From Pristiophorus japonicus (lineage: Eukaryota), in NCBI RefSeq assembly GCF_044704955.1, contig NW_027254485.1:248001-312000 (forward strand): a stretch of DNA of 64,000 nt, read 5' to 3'. The stretch's first letter is position 1; each line of letters starts with the position of its first letter. The notes under the pieces are model-generated. The model was not told the origin of the DNA. It did no database searches and saw only the letters and a program-made list of their open reading frames with translations. Positions 5,991 to 60,829 of the stretch are shown one piece after another. Both the position numbers and the translations under genes were made by a program.

Positions 5991-6615
5991 ATTAATCTCC
6001 CAATCACTGTTCAGTGCATTAATCTCCCAATCAACTTCAATGCATTAATCTCCCAATCAATATCAGCGCATTAATCTCCCAATCAATGTCAGCGCATTAA
6101 TCTCCCAATCAATGTCAGTGCACTAATCTCCCAATCAATGTCAGTGTATTAATCCCCCAATCAATGTCAGTGCATTAATCTCTCAATGAACGTCAGTGCA
6201 TTAATCTCCCAATCAATGTCATCGCATTAATCTCTCAATGAACGTCAGTGCATTAATCTCCCAATCAATGTCATCGCATTAATCACCCAATCAATGTCAG
6301 CGCATTAATACCCAATCAATGTCAGCGCATTAATCTCCCAATCAATGTCAGTGCATTAATCTCCCAATCAATGTCATCGCATTAATCTCTCAATGAACGT
6401 CAGTGCATTATATCCCAATCAATGTCAGTGCATTAATCTCCCAATCAATGGTCACCGTATTAATCTCCCAATCACTGTTCAATGCATTAATCTCCCAATC
6501 AATGTCAGCGCATTAATCTCCCAATCAATGTCAGTGCATTAATCTCCCAATCAATGTCAGCGCATTAATCTCCCAATCAACATCAGTGCATTAATTTCCC
6601 AATCAATGTCAGTGC

Positions 6616-8585
6616 AAACTCGGGGATTGGGAGCAATTTAGAAATCAGCAGAGGATGACAAAGGTTTTGATTTGGGCAGGGAAAATGGAGTTCGAGAAGA
6701 AGCTTGCAGGGAACATTAAGACGGATTGCAAAGGTTTCTATAGATATGTAAAGAGAAAAAGGTTAGTAAAGACAAATGTAGGTCCCCTGCAGTCAGAATC
6801 AGGGGAAGTCATAATGGGGAACAAAGAAATGGCAGACCAATTGAACAAGTACTTTGGTTCAGTATTCACTAAGGAGGACACAAACAACCTTCCGGATATA
6901 AAAGGGGTCAGAGGGTCTAGTAAGGAGGAGGAACTGAGGGAAATCCTTATTAGTTGGGAAATTGTGTTGGGGAAATTGATGGGATTGAAGGCCGATAAAT
7001 CCCCAGAGCCTGGTGGACTGCATCCCACAGTACTTAAGGAGGTGGCCTTGGAAATAGCGGATGCATTGATAGTCATTTTCCAACATTCCATTGACTCTGG
7101 ATCAGTTCCTATCGAGTGGAGTGTAGCCAATGTAACCCCACTTTTTAAAAAAGGACGGAGAGAGAAAACAGGGAATTATAGACTGGTCAGCCTGACATCG
7201 GTAGTGGGTAAAATGATGGAATCAATTATTAAGGATGTCATAGCAGCGCATTTGGAAAGAGGTGACATGATAGGTCCAAGTCAGCATGGATTTGTGAAAG
7301 GGAAATCATGCTTGACAAATCTTCTGGAATTGTTTGAGGATGTTTCCAGTAGAGTGGACAAGGGAGAACCAGTTGATGTGGTATATTTGGACTTTCAGAA
7401 GGCTTTCGACAAGGTCCAACACAAGAGATTAATGTGCAAAGTTAAAGCACATGGGATTGGGGGTAGTGTGCTGACATGGATTGAGAACTGGTTGTCAGAC
7501 AGGAAGCAAAGAGTAGGAGTAAATGGGGACTTTTCAGAATGGCAGGCAGTGACTAATGGGGTACCGCAAGGTTCTGTGCTGGGGCCCCAGCTGTTTACAC
7601 TTTACATTAATGATTTAGACGAGGGGATTAAATGTAGTATCTCCAAATTTGCGGATGACACTAAGTTAGGTGGCAGTGTGAGCTGCGAGGAGGATGCTAT
7701 GAGGCTGCAGAGTAACTTGGATAGGTTTGGTGAGTGGGCAAATGCATGGCAGATGAAGTATAATGTGGATAAATGTGAGGTTATCCACTTCGGTGGTTAA
7801 AAACAGAGAGACAGAGTATTATCTGAATGGTGACAGATTAGGAAAAGGGGAGGTGCAACGAGACCTGGGTGTCATGGTACGTCAGTCATTGAAGGTTGGT
7901 ATGCAGGTACAGCAGGCGGTTAAGAAAGCAAATGGCATGTTGGCCTTCATAGCGAGGGGATTTGAGTACAGGGGCAGGGAGGTGTTGGTACAGTTGTACA
8001 GGGCCTTGGTGAGGCCACACCTGGAGTATTGTGTACAGTTTTGGTCTCCTAACTTGAGGAAGGACATTCTTGCTATCGAGGGAGTGCAGCGAAGGTTCAC
8101 CAGACTGATTCCTGGGATGGCGGGACTGACCTATCAAGAAAGACTGGATCAACTGGGCTTGTATTCACTGGAGTTCAGAAGAATGAGAGGGGACCTCATA
8201 GAAACGTTTAAAATTCTGATGGGTTCAGACAGGTTAGATGCAGGAAGAATGTTCCCAATGTTGGGGAAGTCCAGAACCAGGGGTCACAGTCTAAGGATAA
8301 GGGGTAAGCCATTTAGGACCGAGATGAGGAGAAACTTCTTCACCCAGAGAGTGGTGAACCTGTAGAATTCTCTAACACAGAAAGTTGTTGAGGCCAATTC
8401 ACTAAATATATTCAAAAAGGAGTTAGATGTAGTCCTTACTACTCGGGGGATCAAGGGTTATGGCGAGAAAGCAGGAATGTTGTACTGAAGTTGCATGTTC
8501 AGCCATGAACTCATTGAATGGCGGTGCAGGCTAGAAGGGCTGAATGGCCTACTCCTGCACCTATTTTCTATGTTTCTATGTTTCT
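6616..8585 (+). mobile_element. CR1 LINE, 5'-truncated (same subfamily as 2853-5990)
   Basis: ORFs 6655-7800 and 7763-8365 encode RT; (tttctatg)n tail. Confidence 0.95.
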
Positions 8586-8781
8586 ATTAATCTCCCAATC
8601 AATGTCAGTGCATTAATCTCCCAATCAATGTCAGTGCATTAATCTCCCAATCAATGTCAGTGCATTAATCTCCCAATCAATATCAGTGCACTAATCTCCC
8701 AATCAGTGTCACCGCATTAATCTCCCAATCAATGTCAGTGCATTAATCTCCCAATCAATGTCAGTGCATTAATCTCCCAAT

Positions 8782-10314
8782 CATAAGAACATAAGAACAT
8801 AAGAATTAGGAACAGGAGTAGGCCATCTAGCCCCTCGAGCCTGCTCCACCATTCAACAAGATCATGGCTGATCTGGCCGTGGACTCAGTTCCACTTACCC
8901 GTCTGCTCCCCGTAACCCTTAATTCCCTTATTGGTTAAAAATCTATCTATCTGTGATTTGAATACATTCAATGAGCTAGCCTCAACTGCTTCCTTGGGCA
9001 GAGAATTCCACAGGTTCACAACCCTCTGGGAGAAGAAATTCCTTCTCAACTCAGTTTTAAATTGGCTCCCCTGTATTTTGAGGCTGTGCCCCCTAGTTCT
9101 AGTCTCCCCGACCAGTGGAAACAACCTCTCTGCCTCTTATCTTGTCTATCCCTTTCATTTTTTTAAATGTTTCTATAAGATCACCCCTCATCCTTCTGAA
9201 CTCCAACGATTAAAGACCCAGTCTACTCAATCTATCATCATAAGGTAACTCCCTCATCTCCGGAATCAGCCGAGTGAATCGTCTCTGTACCCCCTCCAAA
9301 GCTAGTATATCCTTCCTTAAGTAAGGTGAGCAAAACTGCACGCAGTACTCCAGGTGCGGCCTCACCAATACCCTGTACAGTTGCAGCAGGACCTCCCTGC
9401 TTTTGTACTCCATCCCTCTCGCAATGAAGGCCAACATTCCATTCGCCTTCCTGATTACCTGCTGCACCTGCAAACTAACTTTTTGGGATTCATGCACAAG
9501 GACCCCCAGGTCCATCTGCACCGCAGCATGTTGCAATTTCTCCCCATTCAAATAATATTCCCTTTTACTGTTTTGTTTTCCAAGGTGGATGACCTCACAT
9601 TTTATGACATTGTATTCCATCTGGCAAACATTAGCCCATTCGCTTAACCTATCTCAATCTCTTTGCAGCCTCTGTGTCCTCTACACAACCCGCTTTCCCA
9701 CTAATCTTTGTGTCATCTGCAAATTTTGTTGCGCTACACTCTGTCCCCTCTTCCAGGTCATCTATGTATATTGTAAACAGTTGTGGTCCCAGCACCGATC
9801 CCTGTGGCACACCACTAACCACCAATTTCCAACCTGAAAAGGACCCATTTATCCTGACTCTCTGCTTTCTGTTAGCCAGTCAATTCTCGATCCATGCTAA
9901 TATATTTCCTCTGACTCCGCGTACCTTTATCTTCTGCAGTAACCTTTTGTGTGGCACCTTATCGAATGCCTTTTGGAAATCTAAATACACCACATCCATC
10001 GGTACACCTCTATCCACCATGCTCGTTATATCCTCAAAGAAGTAAATTAGTTAAACATGATTTCCCCTTCATGAATCCATGTTGCGTCTGCTTGATTGCA
10101 CTATTCCTATCTAGATGTCCTGCTATTTCTTCCTTAATGATGGTTTCAAGCATTTTCCTTACTACAGATGTTAAATTAACTGGCCTATAGTTACCTGCCT
10201 TTTGTCTGCCCCCTTTTTTAAACAGAGGCGTTACATTAGCTGCTTTCCAATCCGCTGGTACCTCCCCAGAGTCCAGAGAATTTTGGTCGATTATAACGAA
10301 TGCATCTGCTATAA
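8782..10314 (-). mobile_element. CR1 LINE, 5'-truncated, second subfamily ((cataagaa)n tail on +)
   Basis: Minus-strand ORFs 9210-9620 and 8885-9124 (RPHLEYCVQF, RRNFFSQRVV). Confidence 0.95.
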
Positions 10315-10644
10315 TTGTCAGTGCGTTAATCTCCCAACCAATGTCACTGCATTAATCTCCCAATCAATGTAAGTGCGTTAATCTCCCAGTCAATGTCAGT
10401 GCATTAATCTCCCAATCAATGTCAGTGCGTTAATCTCCCAATCAATGTCAGTGCATTAATCCCCCAATCAATGTCACTGCGTTAATCTCCCAGTCAATGT
10501 CACTGCATTAATCACTCCCTCAGCACTGCACTGGAGTATCAGCCTGGATGATGGGCTCAAGGATCTGGAGCGGGCTTGAACCCACTACCTTCTGATACAG
10601 AGCTGAGAATGATACCATGATTCCCAACTGAGCCATACGAGGCG

Positions 10645-11068: not shown

Positions 11069-11218
11069 AGCCACAATACAACTGTAAGCTGGTTGTGTCA
11101 CAGTGTAACTGTTTGGGGAAATGGCTGGTGTTATACACAACACAATCTCTCCTGCTGTGTGTGCCTGTCATGCACTTTGTTTACTGGACTTATCTGTGTG
11201 CACCTATTTACCTTCCAG

Positions 11219-11539
11219 TTGTTCAGTCCAAACCATCTGTCTACATCGCCAACCCTTCCTGTGGCAGCAACTCCAACCAAGATGGGATCACCTTCCTGTG
11301 CCTGGTCAAAGATTTTCAGCCCAAGAGCATCATTCAGACATGGTCCACTAATGGTGCGGACATCACGACTGGAGTGAAGAAGTATCCGGCTGTCTTGGGG
11401 CAAAATATGGCGTACACGATGAGCAGTGTGCTCAAAGTCTCTGCAGCAGATTGGGAAACCAATCGGGTCTACTACTGCAAGGCGGGGTACAAGGCCAGTG
11501 AAATGGTGCCGGCTCAGACCCCAGAACCTGGACCTAAAA
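11219..11539 (+). CDS. IgW: IgW heavy chain constant exon CH1
   Basis: Acceptor ccttccag|TT and donor A|gtgagt; 321 nt, phase 1-1. Reads (V)VQSKPSVYIANPSCGSNSNQDGITFLCLVKDFQPKSIIQTWSTNGADITTGVKKYPAVLGQNMAYTMSSVLKVSAADWETNRVYYCKAGYKASEMVPAQTPEPGPK. C1-set Ig domain (C-x-V-x-D-F-x-P, W, YYC) with an extra N-terminal Cys (NPSC), typical of the light-chain-bonding Cys of CH1. Resembles shark IgW CH1 rather than IgM CH1. Confidence 0.92.
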
Positions 11540-13729: not shown

Positions 13730-15052
13730 GGGCCCATCGCGCCTGTACCAGCAATATCCGAGGTATCACATTATTCCCACTCCCCCCCCGCTCTTTCCCC
13801 AAAGCCCTGCAGATTTTCCCGATTCAAGTATTTATCCAATTCCCTTTGGAAAAACATGATTAAGTCTGCTCCCACCCCCTCTCCCAGACACTACATTCCA
13901 GATCTTAGCTTGTCGCTGAGGGTATAACAACATTTTTTTTGCTAAATTCCTCATCTTCCCCCTGGATTTTTTGCCAATTGAATTCTATCTGTGACCTCTG
14001 GCCACCCACCCTCCCGGCAGTGGTAACAGTTTCCCCCATCCACTGAACCCCTCACAATCTGGCACACATCCATTACATTCCCCCACGGTATGTGTGGGAT
14101 AGAGTGTACACAGAGGGAGGGTACAGCCCATGGTGTAAATGGGGATAGAGTGTGCACAGAGGGAGGGTCAGCCCACAGTGTGTGGGGATAGAGTGTACAC
14201 AGAGGGAGGGGGTACAGCCCACAGTGTGTGTGGGGATAGAATGTGCACAGAGGGAGCGGGTACAGCCCACGGTGTGTGTGGGGATAGAGTGCACACAGAG
14301 GGAGGGTACAGTCCACGGTGTGTGTGGGGATAGAGTGTACACAGAGGGAGGGGGTACAGTGCACGGTGTATATGGGGATAGAGTGCATGCAGAGGGAGGG
14401 TACAGCCCACGGTGTTTGTGGGGATAGAGTGTACACAGAGGGAGGGTACAGCCCACGGTGTGTGGGGATAGAGTGTACACAGAGGGAGGGTACAGCCCAC
14501 GGTGTGTGGGGATAGAGTGCACACAGAGGGAGGGTACAGCTCACGGTGTGTGGGGATAGAGTGTACACAGAGGGAGGGTACAGCACACGGTGTGTGGGGA
14601 GAGAGTGTACACAGAGGGAGGGTACAGCCCACGGTGTGTGGGGATAGAGTGTACACAGAGGGAGGGTACAGCTCACGGTGTGTGGGACACATCCATTACA
14701 TTCCCCCCTGAACCTTCTCTGCTGTACAGAAGGAGAACAATCCCAGCTTCTGTGGTCGCCCCATGTCACTGAAGCCCCTAATCCATTTCAGTAACTCTCC
14801 CCTGCGGCCTCTCCATGGCCTTGAATTCCTTGGTCCAGTGCGGCTCCGGCAATCCGCCACAATCCACCAGCTGGGGCCTGGCCGGTGATTTACGGCGGTT
14901 GTGGGGAATAACTCCCTTGCCTTTGTGCTCTACGCCTCGGTTTATAAAGCCCAGGATCCCGAGTGCTTTTTACTGAAAAATCTCGGCCACTTGTCCTGCT
15001 GCCCTTCAAAGGTTTGTGTTCACAAACCCACCGGTCTCCTTGGTCCCTGCAA
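13730..15052 (-). mobile_element. Old degenerate CR1 fragment (interrupted at 14085-14686; continues at ~37381-37425 beyond the 24-bp array)
   Basis: Minus strand reads ...HKPLK...KALGILGFINRGVEHKGKGVI..., homologous to KANGMLAFIARGFEYRGREV in the younger CR1 copies of this window. Confidence 0.8.
14085..14686. repeat. ~45-bp minisatellite (gggatagagtgtacacagagggagggtacagcccacggtgtgtg), flanked by a 21-bp direct repeat
   Basis: acacatccattacattccccc at 14064-14084 and 14687-14707. Confidence 0.92.
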
Positions 15053-18000
15053 CCCTGTAATAGTGCACCATTCACCCCCTGTAATAGGGCACCATTCACC
15101 CCCTGTAATAAGGCATAATTCCCTCCCTGTAATAGGGCACATTCATCCCCTGTAATAGGGCACATTCATCCCCTGTAATAGGGCACCATTCACCCCCTGT
15201 AATAGAGCACCATTCACCCCCTGTAATAGGGCACCATTCACCTCCTGTAATAGGGCAAAATTCACCCCCTGTAATAGGGCACCATTCACCCCCTGTAATA
15301 GGACACATTCATCCCCTGTAATAGGGCACATTCACCCCCTGTAATAGGGCACCATTCACCCCCTGTAATAGGGCACCATTCACCCCCTGTAATAGGGCAC
15401 CATTCACCCCCTGTAATAGGGCTCCATTCACCCCCTGTAATAGGGCTCCATTCACCCCCTGTAATAGGGCACCATTCACCCCCTGTAATAGGGCACCATT
15501 CACCTCCTGTAATAGGGCACCATTCACCCCCTGTAATAGGGCACCATTCACCCCCTGTAATAGGGCACCATTCACCCCCTGTAATAGGGCACCATTCACC
15601 CCCTGTAATAGGGCACAATCATCCCCTGTAATAGGGCACATTCATCCCCTGTAATAGGGCACCATTCACCCCCTGTAATAGGGCACCATTCCCCCCCTGT
15701 AATAGGGCACTATTCCCCCCCTGTAATAGGGCACATTCACACCCTGTAATAGGGCTTCATTCTCCCCCTGTAATAGGGCGCCATTCACCGCCTGTAATAG
15801 GGCTCCATTCCCCCTGTAATAGGGCACCATTCACCCCCTGTAATAGGGCACCATTCACCTCTTGTAATAGGGCACCATTCACACCCTGTAATAGGGCACC
15901 ATTCACCCCCTATAATAGGGCACCATTCACCTCCTGTAATAGGGCACCATTCACCCCCTGTAATAGGGCACCATTCACCCCCTGTAATAGGGCACATTCA
16001 CCTCCTGTAATAGGGCACCATTCACCCCCTGTAATAGGGCACCATTCACCCCCTGTAATAGGGCACCATTCACCCCCTGTAATAGGGCACCATTCACCCC
16101 CTGTAATAGGGCACCATTCACCCCCTGCAATAGGGCTCCATTCACCCCCTGTAATAGGGCTCCATTCACCCCCTGTAATAGGGCACCATTCACCCCCTGT
16201 AATAGGGCACCATTCACCTCCTGTAATAGGGCACCATTCACACCCTGTAATAGGGCACCATTCACCCCCTGTAATAGGGCACCTTTCACCCCCTGTAATA
16301 GGGCACCATTCACCCCTGTAATAGGACTCCATTCACCCCCTGTAATAGGGCACCATTCACCCCCTGTAATAGGGCACCATTCACCCCCTGTAATAGGGCA
16401 CATTCACCTCCTGTAATAGGGCACCATTCACCCCCTGTAATAGGGCACCATTCACCCCCTGTAATAGGGCACCATTCACCCCCTGTAATAGGGCACCATT
16501 CACCCCCTGTAATAGGGCACAATTCACCCCCTGTAATAGGGCACCATTCACCTCCTGTAATACGGCACCATTCACCCCCTGTAATAGGGCACCATTCACC
16601 CCCTGTAATACGGCACCATTCACCCCCTGTAATCGGGCACCATTCACCCCCTGTAATCGGGCACCATTCACCCCCTGTAATAGGGCACCATTCACCCCCT
16701 GTAATAGGGCACCATTCACCCCCTGTAATAGGGCACCATTCACCCCCTGTAATAGGGCTCCATTCACCCCCTGTAATAGGGCTCCATTCACCCCCTGTAA
16801 GAGGGCACCATTCACCCCCTGTAATAGGGCACCATTCACCTCCTGTAATAGGGCACCATTCACCCCCTGTAATAGGGCACCATTCACCCCCTGTAATAGG
16901 GCACCATTCACCCCCTGTAATAGGGCACCATTCACCCCCTGTAATAGGGCACAATCATCCCCTGTAATAGGGCACATTCATCCCCTGTAATAGGGCACCA
17001 TTCACCCCCTGTAATAGGGCACCATTCCCCCCCTGTAATAGGGCACTATTCCCCCCCTGTAATAGGGCACATTCACACCCTGTAATAGGGCTTCATTCTC
17101 CCCCTGTAATAGGGCGCCATTCACCGCCTGTAATAGGGCTCCATTCCCCCTGTAATAGGGCACCATTCACCCCCTGTAATAGGGCACCATTCACCTCTTG
17201 TAATAGGGCACCATTCACCCCCTGTAATAGGGCACCATTCACCCCCTATAATAGTGCACCATTCACCTCCTGTAATAGGGCACCATTCACCCCCTGTAAT
17301 AGGGCACCATTCACCCCCTGTAATAGGGCACATTCACCTCCTGTAATAGGGCACCATTCACCCCCTGTAATAGGGCACCATTCACCCCCTGTAATAGGGC
17401 ACCATTCACCCCCTGTAATAGGGCACCATTCACCCCCTGTAATAGGGCACCATTCACCCCCTGTAATAGGGCACCATTCACCTCTTGTAATAGGGCACCA
17501 TTCACCCCCTGTAATAGGGCACCATTCACCCCCTGTAATAGGGCACCATTCACCCCCTGTAATAGGGCACCATTCACCCCCTGTAATAGGGCACCATTCA
17601 CCCCCTGTAATAGGGCACCATTCAGCCCCTATAATAGGGCACCATTCACCTCCTGTAATAGGGCACCATTCACCCCCTGTAATAGGGCACCATTCACCCC
17701 CTGTAATAGGGCACATTCACCTCCTGTAATAGGGCACCATTCACCCCCTGTAATAGGGCACAATTCACCCCCTGTAATAGGGCACCATTCACCTCCTGTA
17801 ATACGGCACCATTCACCCCCTGTAATAGGGCACCATTCACCCCCTGTAATAGGGCACAATTCACCCCCTGTAATAGGGCACCATTCACCTCCTGTAATAC
17901 GGCACCATTCACCCCCTGTAATAGGGCACCATTCACCCCCTGTAATACGGCACCATTCACCCCCTGTAATCGGGCACCATTCACCCCCTGTAATCGGGCA

Positions 18001-21000
18001 CCATTCACCCCCTGTAATAGGGCACCATTCACCCCCTGTAATAGGGCACCATTCACCCCCTGTAATAGGGCACCATTCACCCCCTGTAATAGGGCTCCAT
18101 TCACCCCCTGTAATAGGGCTCCATTCACCCCCTGTAATAGGGCACCATTCACCCCCTGTAATAGGGCACCATTCACCTCCTGTAATAGGGCACCATTCAC
18201 CCCCTGTAATAGGGCACCATTCACCCCCTGTAATAGGGCACCATTCACCCCCTGTAATAGGGCACCATTCACCCCCTGTAATAGGGCACAATCATCCCCT
18301 GTAATAGGGCACATTCATCCCCTGTAATAGGGCACCATTCACCCCCTGTAATAGGGCACCATTCCCCCCCTGTAATAGGGCACTATTCCCCCCCTGTAAT
18401 AGGGCACATTCACACCCTGTAATAGGGCTTCATTCTCCCCCTGTAATAGGGCGCCATTCACCGCCTGTAATAGGGCTCCATTCCCCCTGTAATAGGGCAC
18501 CATTCACCCCCTGTAATAGGGCACCATTCACCTCTTGTAATAGGGCACCATTCACCCCCTGTAATAGGGCACCATTCACCCCCTATAATAGTGCACCATT
18601 CACCTCCTGTAATAGGGCACCATTCACCCCCTGTAATAGGGCACCATTCACCCCCTGTAATAGGGCACATTCACCTCCTGTAATAGGGCACCATTCACCC
18701 CCTGTAATAGGGCACCATTCACCCCCTGTAATAGGGCACCATTCACCCCCTGTAATAGGGCACCATTCACCCCCTGTAATAGGGCACCATTCACCCCCTG
18801 TAATAGGGCACCATTCACCTCTTGTAATAGGGCACCATTCACCCCCTGTAATAGGGCACCATTCACCCCCTGTAATAGGGCACCATTCACCCCCTGTAAT
18901 AGGGCACCATTCACCCCCTGTAATAGGGCACCATTCACCCCCTGTAATAGGGCACCATTCAGCCCCTATAATAGGGCACCATTCACCTCCTGTAATAGGG
19001 CACCATTCACCCCCTGTAATAGGGCACCATTCACCCCCTGTAATAGGGCACATTCACCTCCTGTAATAGGGCACCATTCACCCCCTGTAATAGGGCACCA
19101 TTCACCCCCTGTAATAGGGCACCATTCACCCCCTGTAATAGGGCACCATTCACCCCCTGTAATAGGGCACCATTCACCCCCTGTAATAGGGCACCATTCA
19201 CCTCTTGTAATAGGGCACCATTCACCCCCTGTAATAGGGCACCATTCACCCCCTGTAATAGGGCACCATTCACCCCCTGTAATAGGGCACCATTCACCCC
19301 CTGTAATAGGGCACCATTCACCCCCTGTAATAGGGCACCATTCACCCCCTGTAATAGGGCACCATTCACCCCCTGTAATAGGGCACCATTCACCCCCTGT
19401 AATAGGGCACCATTCACCCCCTGTAATAGGGCACCATTCACCTCTTGTAATAGGGCACCATTCACCCCCTGTAATAGGGCACCATTCACCCCCTGTAATA
19501 GGGCACCATTCACCCCCTGTAATAGGGCACCATTCACCCCCTGTAATAGGGCACCATTCACGCCCTGTAATAGTGCACCATTCACCCCTTGTAATAGGGC
19601 ACCATTCACCCCCTGTAATAGGGCACCATTCACCTCCTGTAATATGGCACCATTCACCTCCTGTAATAGAGCACCATTCACCCCCTGTAATAGGGCTCCA
19701 TTCACCCCCTGTAATAGGGCTCCATTCACCCCCTGTAATAGGGCACCATTCACTCCCTGTAATAGGGCACCATTCACCCCGTGTAATAGGGCTCCATTCA
19801 CCCCCTGTAATAGGGCACCATTCAGCCCCTGTAATAGGACACCATTCACCCCCTGTAATCGGGCACCATTCACCCCCTGTAATAGGGCTCCATTCACCCC
19901 CTGTAATAGGGCACCATTCACCCCCTGTAATAGGGCACCATTCACCCCCTATAATAGGGCACCATTCACCTCCTGTAATAGGGCACCATTCACCCCCTGT
20001 AATAGGGCACCATTCACCCCCTGTAATAGGGCACATTCACCTCCTGTAATAGGGCACCATTCACCCCCTGTAATAGGGCACCATTCACCCCCTGTAATAG
20101 GGCACCATTCACCTCTTGTAATAGGGCACCATTCACACCCTGTAATAGGGCACCATTCACCCCCTGTAATAGGGCACCTTTCACCCCCTGTAATAGGGCA
20201 CCATTCACCCCTGTAATAGGACTCCATTCACCCCCTGTAATAGGGCACCATTCACCCCCTGTAATAGGGCACCATTCACCCCCTGTAATAGGGCACATTC
20301 ACCTCCTGTAATAGGGCACCATTCACCTCCTGTAATAGGGCACCATTCACCCCGTGTAATAGGGCTCCATTCACCCCCTGTAATAGGGCACCATTCAGCC
20401 CCTGTAATAGGACACCATTCACCCCCTGTAATCGGGCACCATTCACCCCCTGTAATAGGGCTCCATTCACCCCCTGTAATAGGGCACCATTCACCCCCTG
20501 TAATAGGGCACCATTCACCCCCTATAATAGGGCACCATTCACCTCCTGTAATAGGGCACCATTCACCCCCTGTAATAGGGCACCATTCACCCCCTGTAAT
20601 AGGGCACATTCACCCCCTGTAATAGGGCACCTTTCACCCCCTGTAATAGGGCACCATTCACCCCTGTAATAGGACTCCATTCACCCCCTGTAATAGGGCA
20701 CCATTCACCCCCTGTAATAGGGCACCATTCACCCCCTGTAATAGGGCACATTCACCTCCTGTAATAGGGCACCATTCACCTCCTGTAATAGGGCACCATT
20801 CACCCCGTGTAATAGGGCTCCATTCACCCCCTGTAATAGGGCACCATTCAGCCCCTGTAATAGGACACCATTCACCCCCTGTAATCGGGCACCATTCACC
20901 CCCTGTAATAGGGCTCCATTCACCCCCTGTAATAGGGCACCATTCACCCCCTGTAATAGGCACCATTCACCCCCTGTAATAGGGCACCATTCACCCCCTG

Positions 21001-24000
21001 TAATAGGGCACCATTCACCCCCTGTAATAGGGCACCATTCACCCCCTGTAATAGGGCACCATTCACCCCCTGTAATAGGGCACCATTCACCTCTTGTAAT
21101 AGGGCACCATTCACCCCCTGTAATAGGGCACCATTCACCCCCTGTAATAGGGCACCATTCACCCCCTGTAATAGGGCACCATTCACCCCCTGTAATAGGG
21201 CACCATTCACGCCCTGTAATAGTGCACCATTCACCCCTTGTAATAGGGCACCATTCACCCCCTGTAATAGGGCACCATTCACCTCCTGTAATATGGCACC
21301 ATTCACCTCCTGTAATAGAGCACCATTCACCCCCTGTAATAGGGCTCCATTCACCCCCTGTAATAGGGCTCCATTCACCCCCTGTAATAGGGCACCATTC
21401 ACTCCCTGTAATAGGGCACCATTCACCCCGTGTAATAGGGCTCCATTCACCCCCTGTAATAGGGCACCATTCAGCCCCTGTAATAGGACACCATTCACCC
21501 CCTGTAATCGGGCACCATTCACCCCCTGTAATAGGGCTCCATTCACCCCCTGTAATAGGGCACCATTCACCCCCTGTAATAGGGCACCATTCACCCCCTA
21601 TAATAGGGCACCATTCACCTCCTGTAATAGGGCACCATTCACCCCCTGTAATAGGGCACCATTCACCCCCTGTAATAGGGCACATTCACCTCCTGTAATA
21701 GGGCACCATTCACCCCCTGTAATAGGGCACCATTCACCCCCGGTAATAGGGCACCATTCACCTCTTGTAATAGGGCACCATTCACACCCTGTAATAGGGC
21801 ACCATTCACCCCCTGTAATAGGGCACCTTTCACCCCCTGTAATAGGGCACCATTCACCCCTGTAATAGGACTCCATTCACCCCCTGTAATAGGGCACCAT
21901 TCACCCCCTGTAATAGGGCACCATTCACCCCCTGTAATAGGGCACATTCACCTCCTGTAATAGGGCACCATTCACCTCCTGTAATAGGGCACCATTCACC
22001 CCGTGTAATAGGGCTCCATTCACCCCCTGTAATAGGGCACCATTCAGCCCCTGTAATAGGACACCATTCACCCCCTGTAATCGGGCACCATTCACCCCCT
22101 GTAATAGGGCTCCATTCACCCCCTGTAATAGGGCACCATTCACCCCCTGTAATAGGGCACCATTCACCCCCTATAATAGGGCACCATTCACCTCCTGTAA
22201 TAGGGCACCATTCACCCCCTGTAATAGGGCACCATTCACCCCCTGTAATAGGGCACATTCACCTCCTGTAATAGGGCACCATTCACCCCCTGTAATAGGG
22301 CACCATTCACCCCCTGTAATAGGGCACCATTCACCTCTTGTAATAGGGCACCATTCACACCCTGTAATAGGGCACCATTCACCCCCTGTAATAGGGCACC
22401 TTTCACCCCCTGTAATAGGGCACCATTCACCCCTGTAATAGGACTCCATTCACCCCCTGTAATAGGGCACCATTCACCCCCTGTAATAGGGCACCATTCA
22501 CCCCCTGTAATAGGGCACATTCACCTCCTGTAATAGGGCACCATTCACCCCCTGTAATAGGGCACCATTCACCCCCTGTAATAGGGCACCATTCACCCCC
22601 TGTAATAGGGCACCATTCACCCCCTGTAATAGGGCACCATTCACCCCCTGTAATAGGGCACCATTCACCCCCTGTAATAGTGCACCATTCACCCCCTGTA
22701 AAAGGGCACCATTCACCCCCTGTAATAGGGCACCATTCCCCCCCTGTAATAGGGCACCATTCACCCCCTGTAATAGGACTCCATTCACCCCCTGTAATAG
22801 GGCACCATTCACCCCCTGTAATAGGGCACCATTCACCCCCTGTAATAGGGCACCATTCACCCCCTGTAATAGGGCACAATTCACCCCCTGTAATAGGGCA
22901 CCATTCACCTCCTGTAATACGGCACCATTCACCCCCTGTAATAGGGCACCATTCACCCCCTGTAATACGGCACCATTCACCCCCTGTAATCGGGCACCAT
23001 TCACCCCCTGTAATCGGGCACCATTCACCCCCTGTAATAGGGCACCATTCACCCCCTGTAATAGGGCACCATTCACCCCCTGTAATAGGGCACCATTCAC
23101 CCCCTGTAATAGGGCTCCATTCACCCCCTGTAATAGGGCACCATTCACCCCCTGTAATAGGGCACCATTCACCCACTGTAATAGTGCACCATTCACCCCT
23201 TGTAAAAGGGCACCATTCACTCCCTGTAATAGGGCACCATTCACCCCCTGTAATAGGGCACCATTCACCCCCTGTAATAGGACTCCATTCACCCCCTGTA
23301 ATAGGGCACCATTCACCCCCTGTAATAGGGCACCATTCACCCCCTGTAATAGGGCACCATTCACCCCCTGTAATAGGGCACCATTCACCCCCTGTAATAG
23401 GGCACCATTCACCTCCTGTAATACGGCACCATTCACCCCCTGTAATAGGGCACCATTCAACCCCTGTAATAGGGCACCATTCACCCCCTGTAATATGGCT
23501 CCATTCACCCCCTGTAATAGGGCTCCATTCACCCCCTGTAATAGGGCACCATTCACCCCCTGTAATAGGGCTCCGTTCACCCCCTGTAATCGGGCACCAT
23601 TCACCCCGTGTAATCGGGCACCATTCTCCCCCTGTAATAGGGCTCCATTCACCCCCTGTAATAGGGCACCATTCACCCCCTGTAATACGGCACCATTCAC
23701 CCCCTGTAATCGGGCACCATTCACCCCCTGTAATAGGGCACCATTCACCCCCTGTAATAGGGCACCTTTCACCCCCTGTAATAGGGCACCATTCACCCCC
23801 TGTAATAGGGCACCATTCACCCCCTATAATAGGGCACCATTCACCTCCTGTAATAGGGCACCATTCACCCCCTGTAATAGGGCACCATTCACCCCCTGTA
23901 ATAGGGCACCATTCACCCCCTGTAATAGGGCACCATTCACCTCCTGTAATAGGGCACCATTCAACCCCTGTAATAGGGCACCATTCACCCCCTGTAATAG

Positions 24001-27000
24001 GGCTCCATTCACCCCCTGTAATAGGGCTCCATTCACCCCCTGTAATAGGGCACCATTCACCCCCTGTAATAGGGCACCATTCACCCCCTGTAATAGGGCA
24101 CCATTCACCCCCTATAATAGGGCACCATTCACCTCCTGTAAAAGGGCACCATTCACCCCCTGTAATAGGGCACCATTCACCCCCTGTAATAGGGCACCAT
24201 TCACCTCCTGTAATAGGGCACCATTCAACCCCTGTAATAGGGCACCATTCACCCCCTGTAATAGGGCTCCATTCACCCCCTGTAATAGGGCTCCATTCAC
24301 TCCCTGTAATAGGGCTCCATTCACCCCCTGTAATAGGGCTCCATTCACCCCCTGTAATAGGGCACCATTCACTCCCTGTAATAGGGCACCATTCACCCCG
24401 TGTAATAGGGCTCCATTCACCCCCTGTAATAGGGCACCATTCAGCCCCTGTAATAGGACACCATTCACCCCCTGTAATAGGGCACCATTCACCCCCTGTA
24501 ATAGGGCTCCATTCACCCCCTGTAATAGGGCACCATTCACCCCCTGTAATAGGGCACCATTCACCCCCTATAATAGGGCACCATTCACCTCCTGTAATAG
24601 GGCACCATTCACCCCCTGTAATAGGGCACCATTCTCCCCCTGTAATAGGGCACATTCACCTCCTGTAATAGGGCACCATTCACCCCCTGTAATAGGGCAC
24701 CTTTCACCCCCTGTAATAGGGCACCATTCACCCCCTGTAATAGGGCACCATTCACCCCCTGTAATAGGGCACCATTCACCCCCTGTAATAGGGCACCATT
24801 CACCTCTTGTAATAGGGCACCATTCACCCCCTGTAATAGGGCACCATTCACCCCCTGTAATAGGGCACCTTTCACCCCCTGTAATAGGGCACCATTCACC
24901 CCTGTAATAGGACTCCATTCACCCCCTGTAATAGGGCACCATTCACCCCCTGTAATAGGGCACCATTCACCCCCTGTAATAGGACTCCATTCACCCCCTG
25001 TAATAGGGCACCATTCACCCCCTGTAATAGGGCACCATTCACCCCCTGTAATAGGGCACCATTCACCCCCTGTAATAGGGCACCATTCACCCCCTGTAAT
25101 AGGGCACCATTCACCTCCTGTAATACGGCACCATTCACCCCCTGTAATAGGGCACCATTCAACCCCTGTAATAGGGCACCATTCACCCCCTGTAATATGG
25201 CTCCATTCACCCCCTGTAATAGGGCTCCATTCACCCCCTGTAATAGGGCACCATTCACCCCCTGTAATAGGGCTCCGTTCACCCCCTGTAATCGGGCACC
25301 ATTCACCCCGTGTAATCGGGCACCATTCTCCCCCTGTAATAGGGCTCCATTCACCCCCTGTAATAGGGCACCATTCACCCCCTGTAATACGGCACCATTC
25401 ACCCCCTGTAATCGGGCACCATTCACCCCCTGTAATAGGGCACCATTCACCCCCTGTAATGGGGCACCTTTCACCCCCTGTAATCGGGCACCATTCACCC
25501 CCTGTAATAGGGCACCGTTCACCCCCTGTAATAGGGCACCGTTCACCCCCTGTAATAGGGCACCATTCACCCCCTGTAATAGGGCACCATTCACCCCCTG
25601 TAATAGGGCTCCATTCACCCCCTGTAATAGGGCACCATTCACCCCCTGTAATACGGCACCATTCACCCCCTGTAATAGGGCACCATTCACCCCCTGTAAT
25701 AGGGCACCATTCACCCCCTGTAATAGGGCACCATTCACCCCCTATAATAGGGCACCATTCACCCCCTGTAATAGGGCACATTCACCCCCTGTAATAGGGC
25801 ACCATTCACCCCCTGTAATACGGCACCATTCACCCCCTGTAATCGGGCACCATTCACCCCCTGTAATAGGGCACCGTTCACCCCCTGTAATAGGGCACCT
25901 TTCACCCCCTGTAATCGGGCACCATTCACCCCCTGTAATAGGGCACCGTTCACCCCCTGTAATAGGGCACCATTCACCCCCTGTAATAGGGCACCATTCA
26001 CCCCCTGTAATAGGGCACCATTCACCCCCTGTAATAGGGCTCCATTCACCCCCTGTAATAGGGCACCATTCACCCCCTGTAATACGGCACCATTCACCCC
26101 CTGTAATAGGGCACCATTCACCCCCTGTAATAGGGCACCATTCACCCCCTGTAATAGGGCTCCATTCACCCCCTGTAATAGGGTACCATTCACCCCCTGT
26201 AATACGGCACCATTCACCCCCTGTAATAGGGCACCATTCACCCCCTGTAATAGGGCACCATTCACCCCCTGTAATAGGGCACCATTCAACCCCTGTAATA
26301 GGGCACCATTCACCCCCTGTAATAGGGCTCCATTCACCCCCTGTAATAGGGCTCCATTCACCCCCTGTAATAGGGCACCATTCACCCCCTGTAATAGGGC
26401 ACCATTCACCCCCTGTAATAGGGCACCATTCACCCCCTATAATAGGGCACCATTCACCTCCTGTAAAAGGGCACCATTCACCCCCTGTAATAGGGCACCA
26501 TTCACCCCCTGTAATTGGGCACCATTCACCCCCTGTAATAGGGCACCATTCACCTCCTGTAATAGGGCACCATTCAACCCCTGTAATAGGGCACCATTCA
26601 CCCCCTGTAATAGGGCTCCATTCACCCCCTGTAATAGGGCTCCATTCACTCCCTGTAATAGGGCTCCATTCACCCCCTGTAATAGGGCTCCATTCACCCC
26701 CTGTAATAGGGCACCATTCACTCCCTGTAATAGGGCACCATTCACCCCGTGTAATAGGGCTCCATTCACCCCCTGTAATAGGGCACCATTCAGCCCCTGT
26801 AATAGGACACCATTCACCCCCTGTAATAGGGCACCTTTCACCCCCTGTAATAGGGCACCATTCACCCCTGTAATAGGACTCCATTCACCCCCTGTAATAG
26901 GGCACCATTCACCCCCTGTAATAGGGCACCATTCACCCCCTGTAATAGGGCACCATTCACCCCCTGTAATAGGGCACCATTCACCCCCTGTAATAGGGCA

Positions 27001-42089: not shown

Positions 42090-42790
42090 ACCAGAGAATG
42101 GTCACAGCACGAAAGGCCAGTCAGCCCACCGAGCCCGTGCTGACCCCAGCCAGTCCCACTCCCCGCCCTTTCCCCGTAGCCCGCCAATATTCTTCCCTTC
42201 AGATATTTATCCAACTCCCTTTTGAAAGCAGGATTGAGTCTGCCTCCCCCACCCTCTCAGGCCGTGAATTCCAGATCCCAACCACTCGCTGCGTAAACAA
42301 GTATTTTCTTACATCGCCTCTGGTTCTTCTGCCAATCGCCTTAAATCTGTGTCCCTCTGGTTCCTGACCCTTCCCCCAATGGGAACAGTTTCTTTCGACC
42401 TCTGTCCAGATCCCTCATGATTGTGAACACCTGGATCAAATCTCCTCTCAACCTTCTCTGCTCCAAGGAGAACAACCCCAGCTTCTCCAGTCTATCCCCA
42501 TCACTGAAGTCCCTCATCCCTGGAACCATTCTCGGAAATCCCCTCTGCACCCTCTCTAAGGCCTTCACATCCTTCCTAAAGTGCGGGGCCCAGAATTGGA
42601 CACAATACTCCAGCTGGGGCCGAACCCGTGTTTTATACAGGTCCATCATCATTCCCACGGGCAGTACTCTGTGCCTCGGTTTATGAAGCCCAGGATCCTG
42701 GAAGCCTTTATAACTGCTTTCCCAACCTGAGAACACCTCTGTCAAATCTCCTCTCAACCTTCTGCGATTTCTGCACATACACCCACAGGT
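42090..42790 (-). mobile_element. CR1 3' fragment between CH2 and the short tail exon
   Basis: VRPQLEYCVQFWAPHFRKDVKALERVQR...RRLRGDLIQVF. Confidence 0.9.
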
Positions 42791-43335: not shown

Positions 43336-45028
43336 GCCCACAGTGTGTGTGGGGATAGAGTGTACACAGAGGGAGGGTCAGCCCACGGTGTGTGTGGGGA
43401 TAGAGTGTGCACAGAGGGAGGGTACAGCCCACAGTGTGTGTGGGGATAGAGTGTACACAGAGGGAGGGTCAGCCCACAGTGTGTGTGGAGATAGAGTGTA
43501 CACAGAGGGAGGGGGTACAGCCCACAGTGTGTGTGGGGATAGAGTGTACACAGAGGGAGGGGGTACAGCCCACAGTGTGTGTGGAGATAGAGTGTACACA
43601 GAGGGAGGGTGTACAGCCCACAGTGTGTGTGGGGATAGAGTGTACACAGAGGGAGGGTACAGCCCACAGTGTGTGTGGGGATAGAGTGCACACAGAGGGA
43701 GGGTCAGCCCACGGTGTGTGTGGGGATAGAGTGTACACAGAGGGAGGGTCAGGCCACGGTGTGTGTGGATAGAGTGTACACAGAGGGAGGGTCAGGTCAC
43801 GGTGTGTGTGGGGATAGAGTGTACACAGAGGGAGGGTCAGGCCACGGTGTGTGTGGATAGAGTGTACACAGAGGGAGGGTCAGGTCACGGTGTGTGTGGG
43901 ATAGAGTGTACACAGAGGGAGGGTCAGGCCACGGTGTGTGTGGATAGAGCGTACACAGAGGGAGGGTCAGCGTATGGTGTGTGTGGGGATAGAGTGTACA
44001 CAGGGGGAGGGTCAGCCCACAGTGTGTGGGGATAGAGTGTACACAGAGGGAGGGGTACAGCCCATGGTGTGTGTGGGGATAGAGTGTACACAGAGGGAGG
44101 GTACAGCCCACGGTATATGTTGGGAATAGAGTGTACACAGAGGGAGGGTACAGCCCACGGTGTGTGGGGATAGAGTGTACACAGAGGGAGGGTACAGCCC
44201 ACGGTGTGTGGGATAGAGTGTTGCACAGAGGAAGGGTCAGGCCACGGTGTGTGGGGATAGACTGTACACAGAGGAAGGGTCAGGCCACGGTGTGTGGGGA
44301 TAGAGTGCACACAGAGGGAGGGTCAGCCCACGGTGTATATTGGGATACAGTGTACACAGAGGGAGGGTACAGCCCATGGTGTGTGTGGGGATAGAATGTA
44401 CACAGAGGGAGGGGGGTACAGCCCACGGTGTATATGGGGATAGAGTGTACACAGAGGGAGGGGGTACAGCCCACGGTGTGTGTGGGGATAGAGTGTACAC
44501 AGAGGGAGGGGGTACAGCCCACAGTGTATACGGGGATAGAGGGTACACAGAGGGAGGGTCAACCCATGGTGTGTGTGGATACAGTGTACACAGAGGGAGG
44601 GGGTACAACCCACGGTGTGTGTGGGGATAGAGTGTACACAGAGGGATGGTACAGCCCACGGTGTGTGTGGGATAGAGTGTACACAGAGGGAGGGTCAGCC
44701 CACGGTGTATATGGGGATACAGTGTACACAGAGGGAGGGTACAGCCCACGGTGTGTGTGGGATAGAGTGTACACAGAGGGAGGGTCAGCCCACGGTGTAT
44801 ATTGGGATACAGTGTACACAGAGGGAGGGTACAGCCCATGGTGTGTGTGTGGATAGAGTGTACACAGAGGGAGGGTACAGCCCATGGTGTATATGGGGAT
44901 AGAGTGTACACAGAGGGAGGGGGTACAGCCCATGGTGTGTGTGGGGATAGAGTGTACACAGAGGGAGGGGGTACAGCCCACGGTGTATATGGGGATAGAG
45001 TGTACACAGAGGGAGGGGGTACAGCCCA
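43336..45028. repeat. ~45-47-bp minisatellite, same family and orientation as 14085-14686
   Basis: Same unit gggatagagtgtacacagagggaggg(g)tacagcccac(a/g)gtgtgtg. Confidence 0.95.
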
Positions 45029-59746: not shown

Positions 59747-59966
59747 GTACGTGTGGAGAGAGCTCGGTGTGTGTGTCTGGGTCTGAGCCCATGAGGCCAT
59801 TTATTACCGTCTAGTGGTGAGCTGTCCAGTCCGCGGTGTCTGAGTGTGTTAAAGACAGAGAGAAGCTGGAACCCTGCCGAGAAACGGATCAGGAAAACAA
59901 TCCCAAATCACAACAACGGCCCGGCACCAAACCACACTGGCTCCCGCGGGATGGGTTAGTGGCAGT

Positions 59967-60740
59967 GGGATAGACCCCGAGGGATTGGGATAGACCCCGA
60001 GGGATTGGGATAGATCCCGAGGGAGTGGGATAGACCCCGAGGGATTGGGATAGATCCCGAGGGAGTGGGATAGACCCCGAGGGATTAGGATAAACCACGA
60101 GGGAGTGGGTGGGATAGACCCCGAGGGATTGGGATAGACCCCGAGGGATTAGGATAAACCACGAGGGAGTGGGATAGACCCCCAGGGATTGGGATAGACC
60201 CCGAGAGAGTGGGTGGGATAGACCCTGAGGGATTGTGATAGACCCCGAGGGATTGGGATAGACCCCGAGGGGGTGGATGGGATAGATCCCGAGGGAGTGA
60301 GTGGGATAGATCCCGAGGGAGTCGGATAGACCCCGAAGGAGTGGGATAGACCCCGAGGTATTGAGTGGGATAGACCCCGAGGTATTGAGTGGGATAGACC
60401 CCGAGGGATTGGGTGGGATAGACCCCGAGGGATTGGGATAGACCCCGAGGGAGTGGGATAGACCCCGAGGGATTGGGATAGACCCCGAGGTATTGAGTGG
60501 GATAGACCCCGAGGGATTGGGATAGACCCCGAGGGATTGGGATAGACCCCCATGGATTGGGATAAACCCCGAGGGATTGGGATAGACCCCGAGGGATTGG
60601 GATAAACCCCGAGGGATTGGGATAGACCCCGAGGGAGTGGGATAGACCCCGAGGGATTGGGATAGACCCCCAGGGATTGGGATAAACCCCGAGGGATTGG
60701 GATAGACCCCGAGGGATTGGGATAGACCCCGAGGGATTGG
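59967..60740. repeat. ~20-bp minisatellite (gggatagaccccgagggatt)
   Basis: Direct reading. Confidence 0.93.
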
Positions 60741-60829
60741 CAGATGTCACGGTATTAGGAGGAGCCCGAGGCAGAAGAGCCATTGGAAGGGTGAGGGAGA
60801 TTGTCTGTCTGAGGCCGAGGTTGAACATG

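Follow-up and report, generated by a model that had tools for sequence, protein, structure and literature searches.

The 64-kb window analysed here, a stretch of 64,000 nucleotides from Pristiophorus japonicus, consists to 60% of tandem repeat. It contains an immunoglobulin (Ig) exon, which by its sequence is a heavy-chain-like C1-set exon and which may belong to IgW (a search for homologues close to it in length gave no match), and an old, broken LINE, which we take to be CR1-like. The LINE is interrupted by a block of minisatellite between two copies of a 21-mer, and a second array of the same repeat family, referred to here as the 43-kb array, lies further downstream (Table 1). TRF described the block as a repeat with a period of 44 and 13.3 copies at 14082-14686, and the 43-kb array as a repeat with a period of 45 and 37.1 copies.

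Table 1. Positions of the minisatellite block, its flanks and related features in the 64-kb window
Feature	Position	Strand	Remarks
Ig heavy-chain-like C1-set exon	11113-11451		
Host LINE, left part	13777-14063	-	3' region of old broken LINE ORF2
Target bases preceding the duplication	14060-14063		3/4 match to insert end 14683-14686; 4/5 with next base
Left copy of 21-bp target duplication	14064-14084	n/a	final 3 nt (CCC) double as microhomology to the unit
Minisatellite block	14085-14686	+	602 bp, 13.3 units of 43-48 bp
Right copy of 21-bp target duplication	14687-14707	n/a	junction spanned by short-read contigs
Host LINE, right part	14708-15052	-	alignable to ~14970 against the copy at 42150-42709; ends at the giant 24-bp array
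Second array of the block's repeat family	43336-45028	+	~37 units; 5-nt end repeat only

When both strands of the window were searched, the exact 21-mer was detected at the two positions bracketing the block, and no third copy was detected on either strand; thus, the perfect 21-bp target duplication around 602 bp that had been read from the sequence is exact in its coordinates and its identity. With one mismatch allowed, the duplication grows to 24/25 nt (14060-14084 versus 14683-14707). By analytic calculation over 289 edge placements, an exact 21-mer at the edges of an array has a chance probability of ~8e-10. Among random pairs of edges drawn from non-array DNA, 41 of 20,000 shared at least 21 nt; these pairs presumably represent equivalent positions in young LINE copies. 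Moreover, a flanking duplication of at least 9 nt was present in one of 19 arrays in the window, the remaining 18 having 2-8 nt (the array at the window start was left out of this count), and the 43-kb array, for which no evident target duplication had been claimed, indeed has none beyond its short end repeat. Among the other arrays, the strongest case for a short target duplication, or for birth between short repeats, is a 20-bp array at 59966-60740, which is bounded by a 6-nt direct repeat (59960-59965 and 60738-60743).

Joined through one copy of the 21-mer, the two flanks of the block gave an unbroken alignment to an old LINE at 42150-42709 (66.7% over 589 columns). The alignment score was 167 with one copy of the 21-mer, 149 with two copies and 135 with none; the reference in this alignment is a paralogous LINE copy rather than an orthologous empty site. 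The old LINE at 42150-42709 matches the C terminus of ORF2 of the young LINEs in the window (42.6% over 169 aa), one copy of which has an RVT_1 domain (E 2e-33), and the duplicated 21 bases are part of the broken ORF2 segment, which is on the minus strand. The proposed insertion into an old LINE is therefore upheld by flanks that rejoin colinearly with an independent LINE copy; the direction of the event follows from the LINE alignment alone, no empty site having been observed. In total, we conclude that the 602-bp block is a single insertion of minisatellite sequence accompanied by a 21-bp target duplication. The block is non-coding and represents one event.

The upper 95% bound on the divergence between the two 21-bp copies is 13%. 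Thus, the insertion is younger than the host LINE and need not be very recent. We also considered that the block was inserted during integration of the host LINE itself, by a jump of the reverse transcriptase, and rejected this because the host differs by ~33% from its nearest relative within the window, whereas there is no difference between the two 21-mers.

A separate observation concerns the old LINE used as reference. An exact 22-mer at 42436-42457 (~35 nt if mismatches are admitted) recurs 284 bp downstream at 42742-42763, within another old LINE copy, where it replaces a similar length of LINE sequence, and we read it as a locally templated replacement. The segment at 42436-42457 is the part of the LINE that is homologous to the duplicated 21-mer, a coincidence that may be due to chance.

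An assembly artefact at the edge of a repeat would produce an apparent duplication, and the short reads bear on this explanation. Four public runs cover the region, all of them from one sample, which is possibly the assembled one. We compared the short-read contigs of two of the four runs (X1 and X3) with the window over 14600-15040, i.e. at the right junction, the remaining two runs having equal sizes. In X3, record 10 spans 14647-14728 with 0 differences, reaching 40 bases beyond the junction on one side and 42 on the other. In X1, record 5 spans 14657-14859 and has 30 bases on the array side, one under the 31-base bridging rule. Thus, in the reads, the right junction of the duplication is spanned with no difference in X3 and is covered in X1. 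Together with the colinearity of both flanks with an independent LINE copy, this makes an artefact extremely improbable, even though the comparison was limited to the right junction and a single, possibly identical, sample.

The depth of X1 in the bin 14690-14704 is that of record 5 alone (7.93), and there is therefore no second, empty-site contig in that bin. In X3, the junction contig is continuous across 14686/14687 which, by the logic of the assembly graph, argues against an empty version sharing the junction words among the contigs listed. Accordingly, an empty site was not seen at the right junction in runs X1 and X3 of this one sample.

The right flank was present in several versions. 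In X3, three versions (records 11-13) with a depth of ~3 each and 1-5 differences from the window span 14699-14992 in the one sample, and both runs contain a variant showing 6 differences and a gap of 10 bases at 14830-14992. Because three versions exceed what a diploid single locus can hold, the right-flank segment is probably duplicated, and the insertion probably predates the 3-4% differences between the right-flank versions. Independently of these versions, X1 has C at 14780 throughout its depth where the window has A.

The units of the block fall into two parts. Units 1-7 are heterogeneous, with a mean of 6.6 edits, while units 8-12 are nearly uniform 44-mers with a mean of 1.5. For each of six among units 1-7, the nearest of 11 randomly drawn units of the 43-kb array was on average about as close as, or closer than, the nearest unit within the block, and unit 3 of the block is identical to unit 4 of the 43-kb array. 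Overall, the two arrays were undifferentiated in their unit variants (P 0.41), and of 18 hand-picked variant strings, eight were common to both arrays, six occurred only in the 43-kb array and four only in the block. The argument from shared variants is weakened by CpG decay and by slippage in G runs and GT runs, as such variants can recur independently. When a single unit was compared with the window, nothing outside the two arrays scored better than E 0.42.

The sequence-only reading had suggested that the block was possibly copied from the array 29 kb downstream. This specific donor was not borne out: colinear runs of units between the block and the 43-kb array, the sole donor candidate, were no better than in shuffled order (P 0.076-0.758 over seven run lengths, 2-7 and 12 units), and the longest exact string common to the two arrays, 87 nt, compares with internal repeats of 71 and 103 nt. 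We therefore reject the 43-kb array in its present order as the direct donor. Probably, the units of the block were diverse on arrival and its right end grew thereafter; a different array, or the 43-kb array in an earlier state, may have been the donor. Summed contig depth was ~1,200-2,150 for the unit, 6-8 for the junction contigs and 16,000-25,000 for a LINE segment; such depth is no copy number and gives at most a hint of a family of modest size, in the hundreds of units. An exact 24-nt motif of the unit had 0 matches in metagenome contigs, which is uninformative for a vertebrate repeat.

The two junctions were compared with the unit and with the target. At the left junction, the target ends in a run of C and the unit supplies CCC ahead of the first inserted base. 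The microhomology of 5 nt (cccac) previously claimed here is hence too long: it amounts to 3 nt (CCC), and the following AC is present in the insert only. At the right junction, the end of the insert agrees at four of five positions with the target bases that immediately precede the duplication, a match that had been missed. With random placement, the probability of such microhomology was 0.059-0.115 at the left junction and 0.068-0.109 at the right junction, where the test was picked after the data had been seen; neither is significant alone. The block's two ends lie in different phases of the unit, which fits two separate switches.

The repeat extends from 14082 to 14686, and both of these limits fall on a border of a 5-bp hairpin in the unit. 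The claim that the block lacks terminal inverted repeats thus stands with one exception, a 5-bp inverted repeat at 14082-14686, which is the unit's own hairpin. The ends of the 43-kb array also lie at the unit palindrome, and all four ends of the two arrays are at the border of or inside a palindrome of 15-17 nt; this observation was made post hoc and is weak. A non-autonomous DNA transposon (MITE) was rejected, because the only inverted repeat has 5 bp and is present in every unit and the duplication has 18-21 bp, compared with the 2-11 bp that are characteristic of DNA transposon superfamilies.

From the duplication and the matches at both junctions, a templated or repair-type insertion at a staggered break, as had been proposed, is the best fit. 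We infer a break, a repair pathway and a donor as follows. With a probability of roughly 55%, several units that were already diversified were copied as one block from a different array of this family, by break repair or a template switch, and expansion at the right end of the block followed. The event would have been a single repair event in the germline. It would have started from a break with ends staggered by ~21 nt, arising from nicks ~21 nt apart that were filled in, or from an equivalent template switch at a replication fork. One 3' end may then have used CCC to prime on an array of the family and copied several units; by way of the second short match, the copying end would have come back to the target and rejoined it 21 nt upstream, leaving the target duplicated. 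The right-hand 44-mers would have expanded later.

The same junctions might have been made by a free piece of array, i.e. a linearised extrachromosomal circle or an excised fragment, that was end-joined into a staggered break, with the fill-in giving the duplication. The junction sequence is compatible with copying and with capture of a free fragment alike and cannot separate the two. Capture would agree with the outer ends of the block lying at the borders of the 5-bp hairpin, a possible cut point, and with published work that describes an excess of satellite sequence on circles and proposes that Rsp-like and alpha satellite reintegrate (PMC7403614, PMC7719264, in the passages available). However, simple integration of a circle predicts partial end units that sum to a whole unit, whereas the block has 13.3 copies. 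Moreover, in the portion of PMC7719264 at hand, integration of a circle duplicates sequence shared with the unit over 2-10 bp, while 18 of the 21 bases here are not unit sequence. We regard capture of a free piece as conceivable but rather unlikely.

Alternatively, the 21-bp duplication might stem from retroposition, in which the enzyme of an L1- or RTE-type LINE, from a relaxed clade, reverse-transcribed RNA made of the repeat where the target had been nicked in a staggered manner. In favour of this alternative, many LINEs in the window have long open reverse transcriptase frames, including the one with the RVT_1 domain, and a perfect duplication of 21 bp is near the upper end of the duplications made by L1 and RTE elements. 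However, the block lacks poly(A) and poly(T), the longest run of A or T being 3, in agreement with the absence of poly(A) noted earlier; a search of the block for tail motifs of the local LINEs gave 0 matches; the target lacks an A/T-rich cut site at either end; and the insert is unit sequence from end to end with no non-repeat head, unlike the class of LINE-mobilised sequences. Moreover, both of two young LINEs that interrupt a 26-bp array in the window left a duplication of ~0-1 nt, modulo 26, and stringent LINEs require their own 3' end (PMC3747384, in its excerpted text). Thus, mobilisation of an array RNA in trans, which had been offered as an option, has left no positive sign, neither poly(A) nor LINE tail, and we consider it unlikely. 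A SINE, a processed copy and an SVA-like VNTR were rejected on the same grounds: no poly(A), no LINE-derived tail and no non-repeat head.

The 26-bp minisatellite is apparently split into three parts (5991-6616, 8586-8783 and 10316-10513) by the two young LINEs, and the phase of its unit resumes within ~1 nt across both of them. Furthermore, five array edges in the window (5990, 8585, 8784, 51139 and 62295) directly adjoin LINE 3' tails. These five edges suggest that young LINEs insert at or in minisatellites in this window.

Arrays may also arise in place. A 24-bp-unit array of 22 kb with 933 copies (15053-37389) starts in the old host LINE, and its flanks together with one unit align loosely but colinearly to all four of the young LINE copies tried, which suggests, as far as alignment goes, that this array was born locally from LINE ORF2 sequence. 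For the block, a broken end in the host might have folded back, copied its flank in inverted orientation and amplified the copy, in which case the 43-kb array would be a daughter of the block. In addition to the neighbouring array that appears to be locally born, this reading has on its side that the minus strand of the left flank (tile at 14011) is in the top 1% of the 3,244 tiles of the window for similarity to the arrays. However, against composition-matched shuffles the inverted match gave P 0.097, and the homologous segments of other LINE copies were non-significant in 7/7 cases (P 0.19-0.85). The inverted match is also heavily gapped while the 21-mers are identical, for which the chance is 0.009 at a divergence of 20% and 0.0002 at 33%, and the unit has no direct-strand match to the host. 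Alignment of the unit to the local LINE, which the sequence-only reading had singled out as the sign of a local origin, was consequently not obtained on the direct strand and was within chance on the inverted strand. Local birth of the block is very unlikely.

The proximity of an Ig exon raises a further possibility, namely that RAG acting in the germline freed a piece of array at cryptic CAC ends and that the piece was captured in an unrelated break beside the Ig cluster. RAG signals consist of a heptamer, a spacer of 12 or 23 and a nonamer, and transposition by RAG leaves a duplication of ~5 bp, compared with 21 bp here. The heavy-chain-like C1 exon is 2.6 kb away, a perfect heptamer is present in two units of the block and in nine units of the 43-kb array, and, in one reading, CAC opens the insert and GTG followed by 2 nt closes it. 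However, the heptamers at the two ends match at 5/7 and 4/7 positions and the best nonamers at 3/9 at both ends; no site in the arrays exceeds 5/9 for the nonamer, and no site with at least 6/7 and 7/9 was printed for the 64-kb window. Moreover, the CAC and GTG ends are accounted for by the palindrome of the unit. Germline RAG activity has been described in sharks (PMC2193156) and fragments released by RAG join unrelated breaks (PMC5339680), according to the excerpts of these two papers. On balance, an origin by RAG is highly improbable.

Minisatellite-like clusters or distant sequences that were inserted at new sites and are accompanied by target duplications or microhomology are familiar from the Cla elements of Chironomus and from human templated-sequence insertion polymorphisms. 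The closest descriptions come from flies and humans, and the insertion works like the repair-type satellite insertions known from them. In Drosophila simulans and D. mauritiana, as described in the excerpted text of Sproul et al. 2020 (PMC7403614), insertions of Rsp-like satellite have microhomology (7 and 4 bp) at their junctions, a 32-bp target duplication that includes the microhomology is present in four clusters, and the insertions are attributed to microhomology-mediated repair, FoSTeS/MMBIR or SDSA switches, circles being proposed as well. As in that system, a tandem block reached a new site inside older repetitive DNA. By contrast, the excerpt describes a target that is another satellite, many events with a common junction and known empty syntenic sites (PMC7403614), whereas here a unit of 44-48 bp entered a dead LINE in one event with a duplication of 21 bp.

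Dispersed alpha satellite in human euchromatin, in the available portion of PMC7719264, likewise occurs as pieces at unique sites, often in LINEs or other repeats, with no further spread seen. Its target duplications of 2-10 bp are read there as homology between circle and target; unlike these, the duplication here has 21 bp and is mostly unrelated to the unit (PMC7719264). A de novo insertion of an alpha-satellite array on human chromosome 15 also occurred at an unrelated site and with a junction ambiguity of 4 nt, but, in the text seen of that report, with a deletion and no target duplication (PMC8662618). As to the duplication itself, nearby nicks on opposite strands give rise to small tandem duplications at breaks through CST/Pol alpha-NHEJ or TMEJ (PMC8355091, in part). 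As proposed here, fill-in of overhangs duplicates the target in these cases and the TMEJ route involves microhomology; the excerpt of that paper contains no case in which a distant repeat of 600 bp was captured between the two copies (PMC8355091).

A vertebrate survey describes an enrichment of certain 5-mers, among them TCCCC, GTGTA and TACAC, at breakpoints in cartilaginous fish (PMC13320814, in its accessible part), and these 5-mers are found at the left junction and in the unit. A limited literature search yielded no report of this repeat family and none of minisatellite insertions with a target duplication in sharks.

The block is most likely a one-off repair scar rather than a self-mobile element. 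It could alternatively belong to a mobile repeat without tail or ends of its own, whose arrays are cut or switched at the unit hairpin and repeatedly inserted at germline nicks with a stagger of ~20 nt, thereby seeding the minisatellite-dense DNA around Ig clusters. This reading draws on the four array ends at the palindrome and from the summed depth that hints at more units elsewhere, and we judge it quite unlikely. If many arrays had duplications of 15-25 bp and a fixed end phase, they would constitute a new class of mobile repeat. As a single event with no visible functional effect, the insertion bears out a route that is known from flies and primates. It provides a base-level record of how a minisatellite family reached a new site in a region of a vertebrate genome, and one old LINE hosts both routes to new arrays, insertion and apparent local birth.
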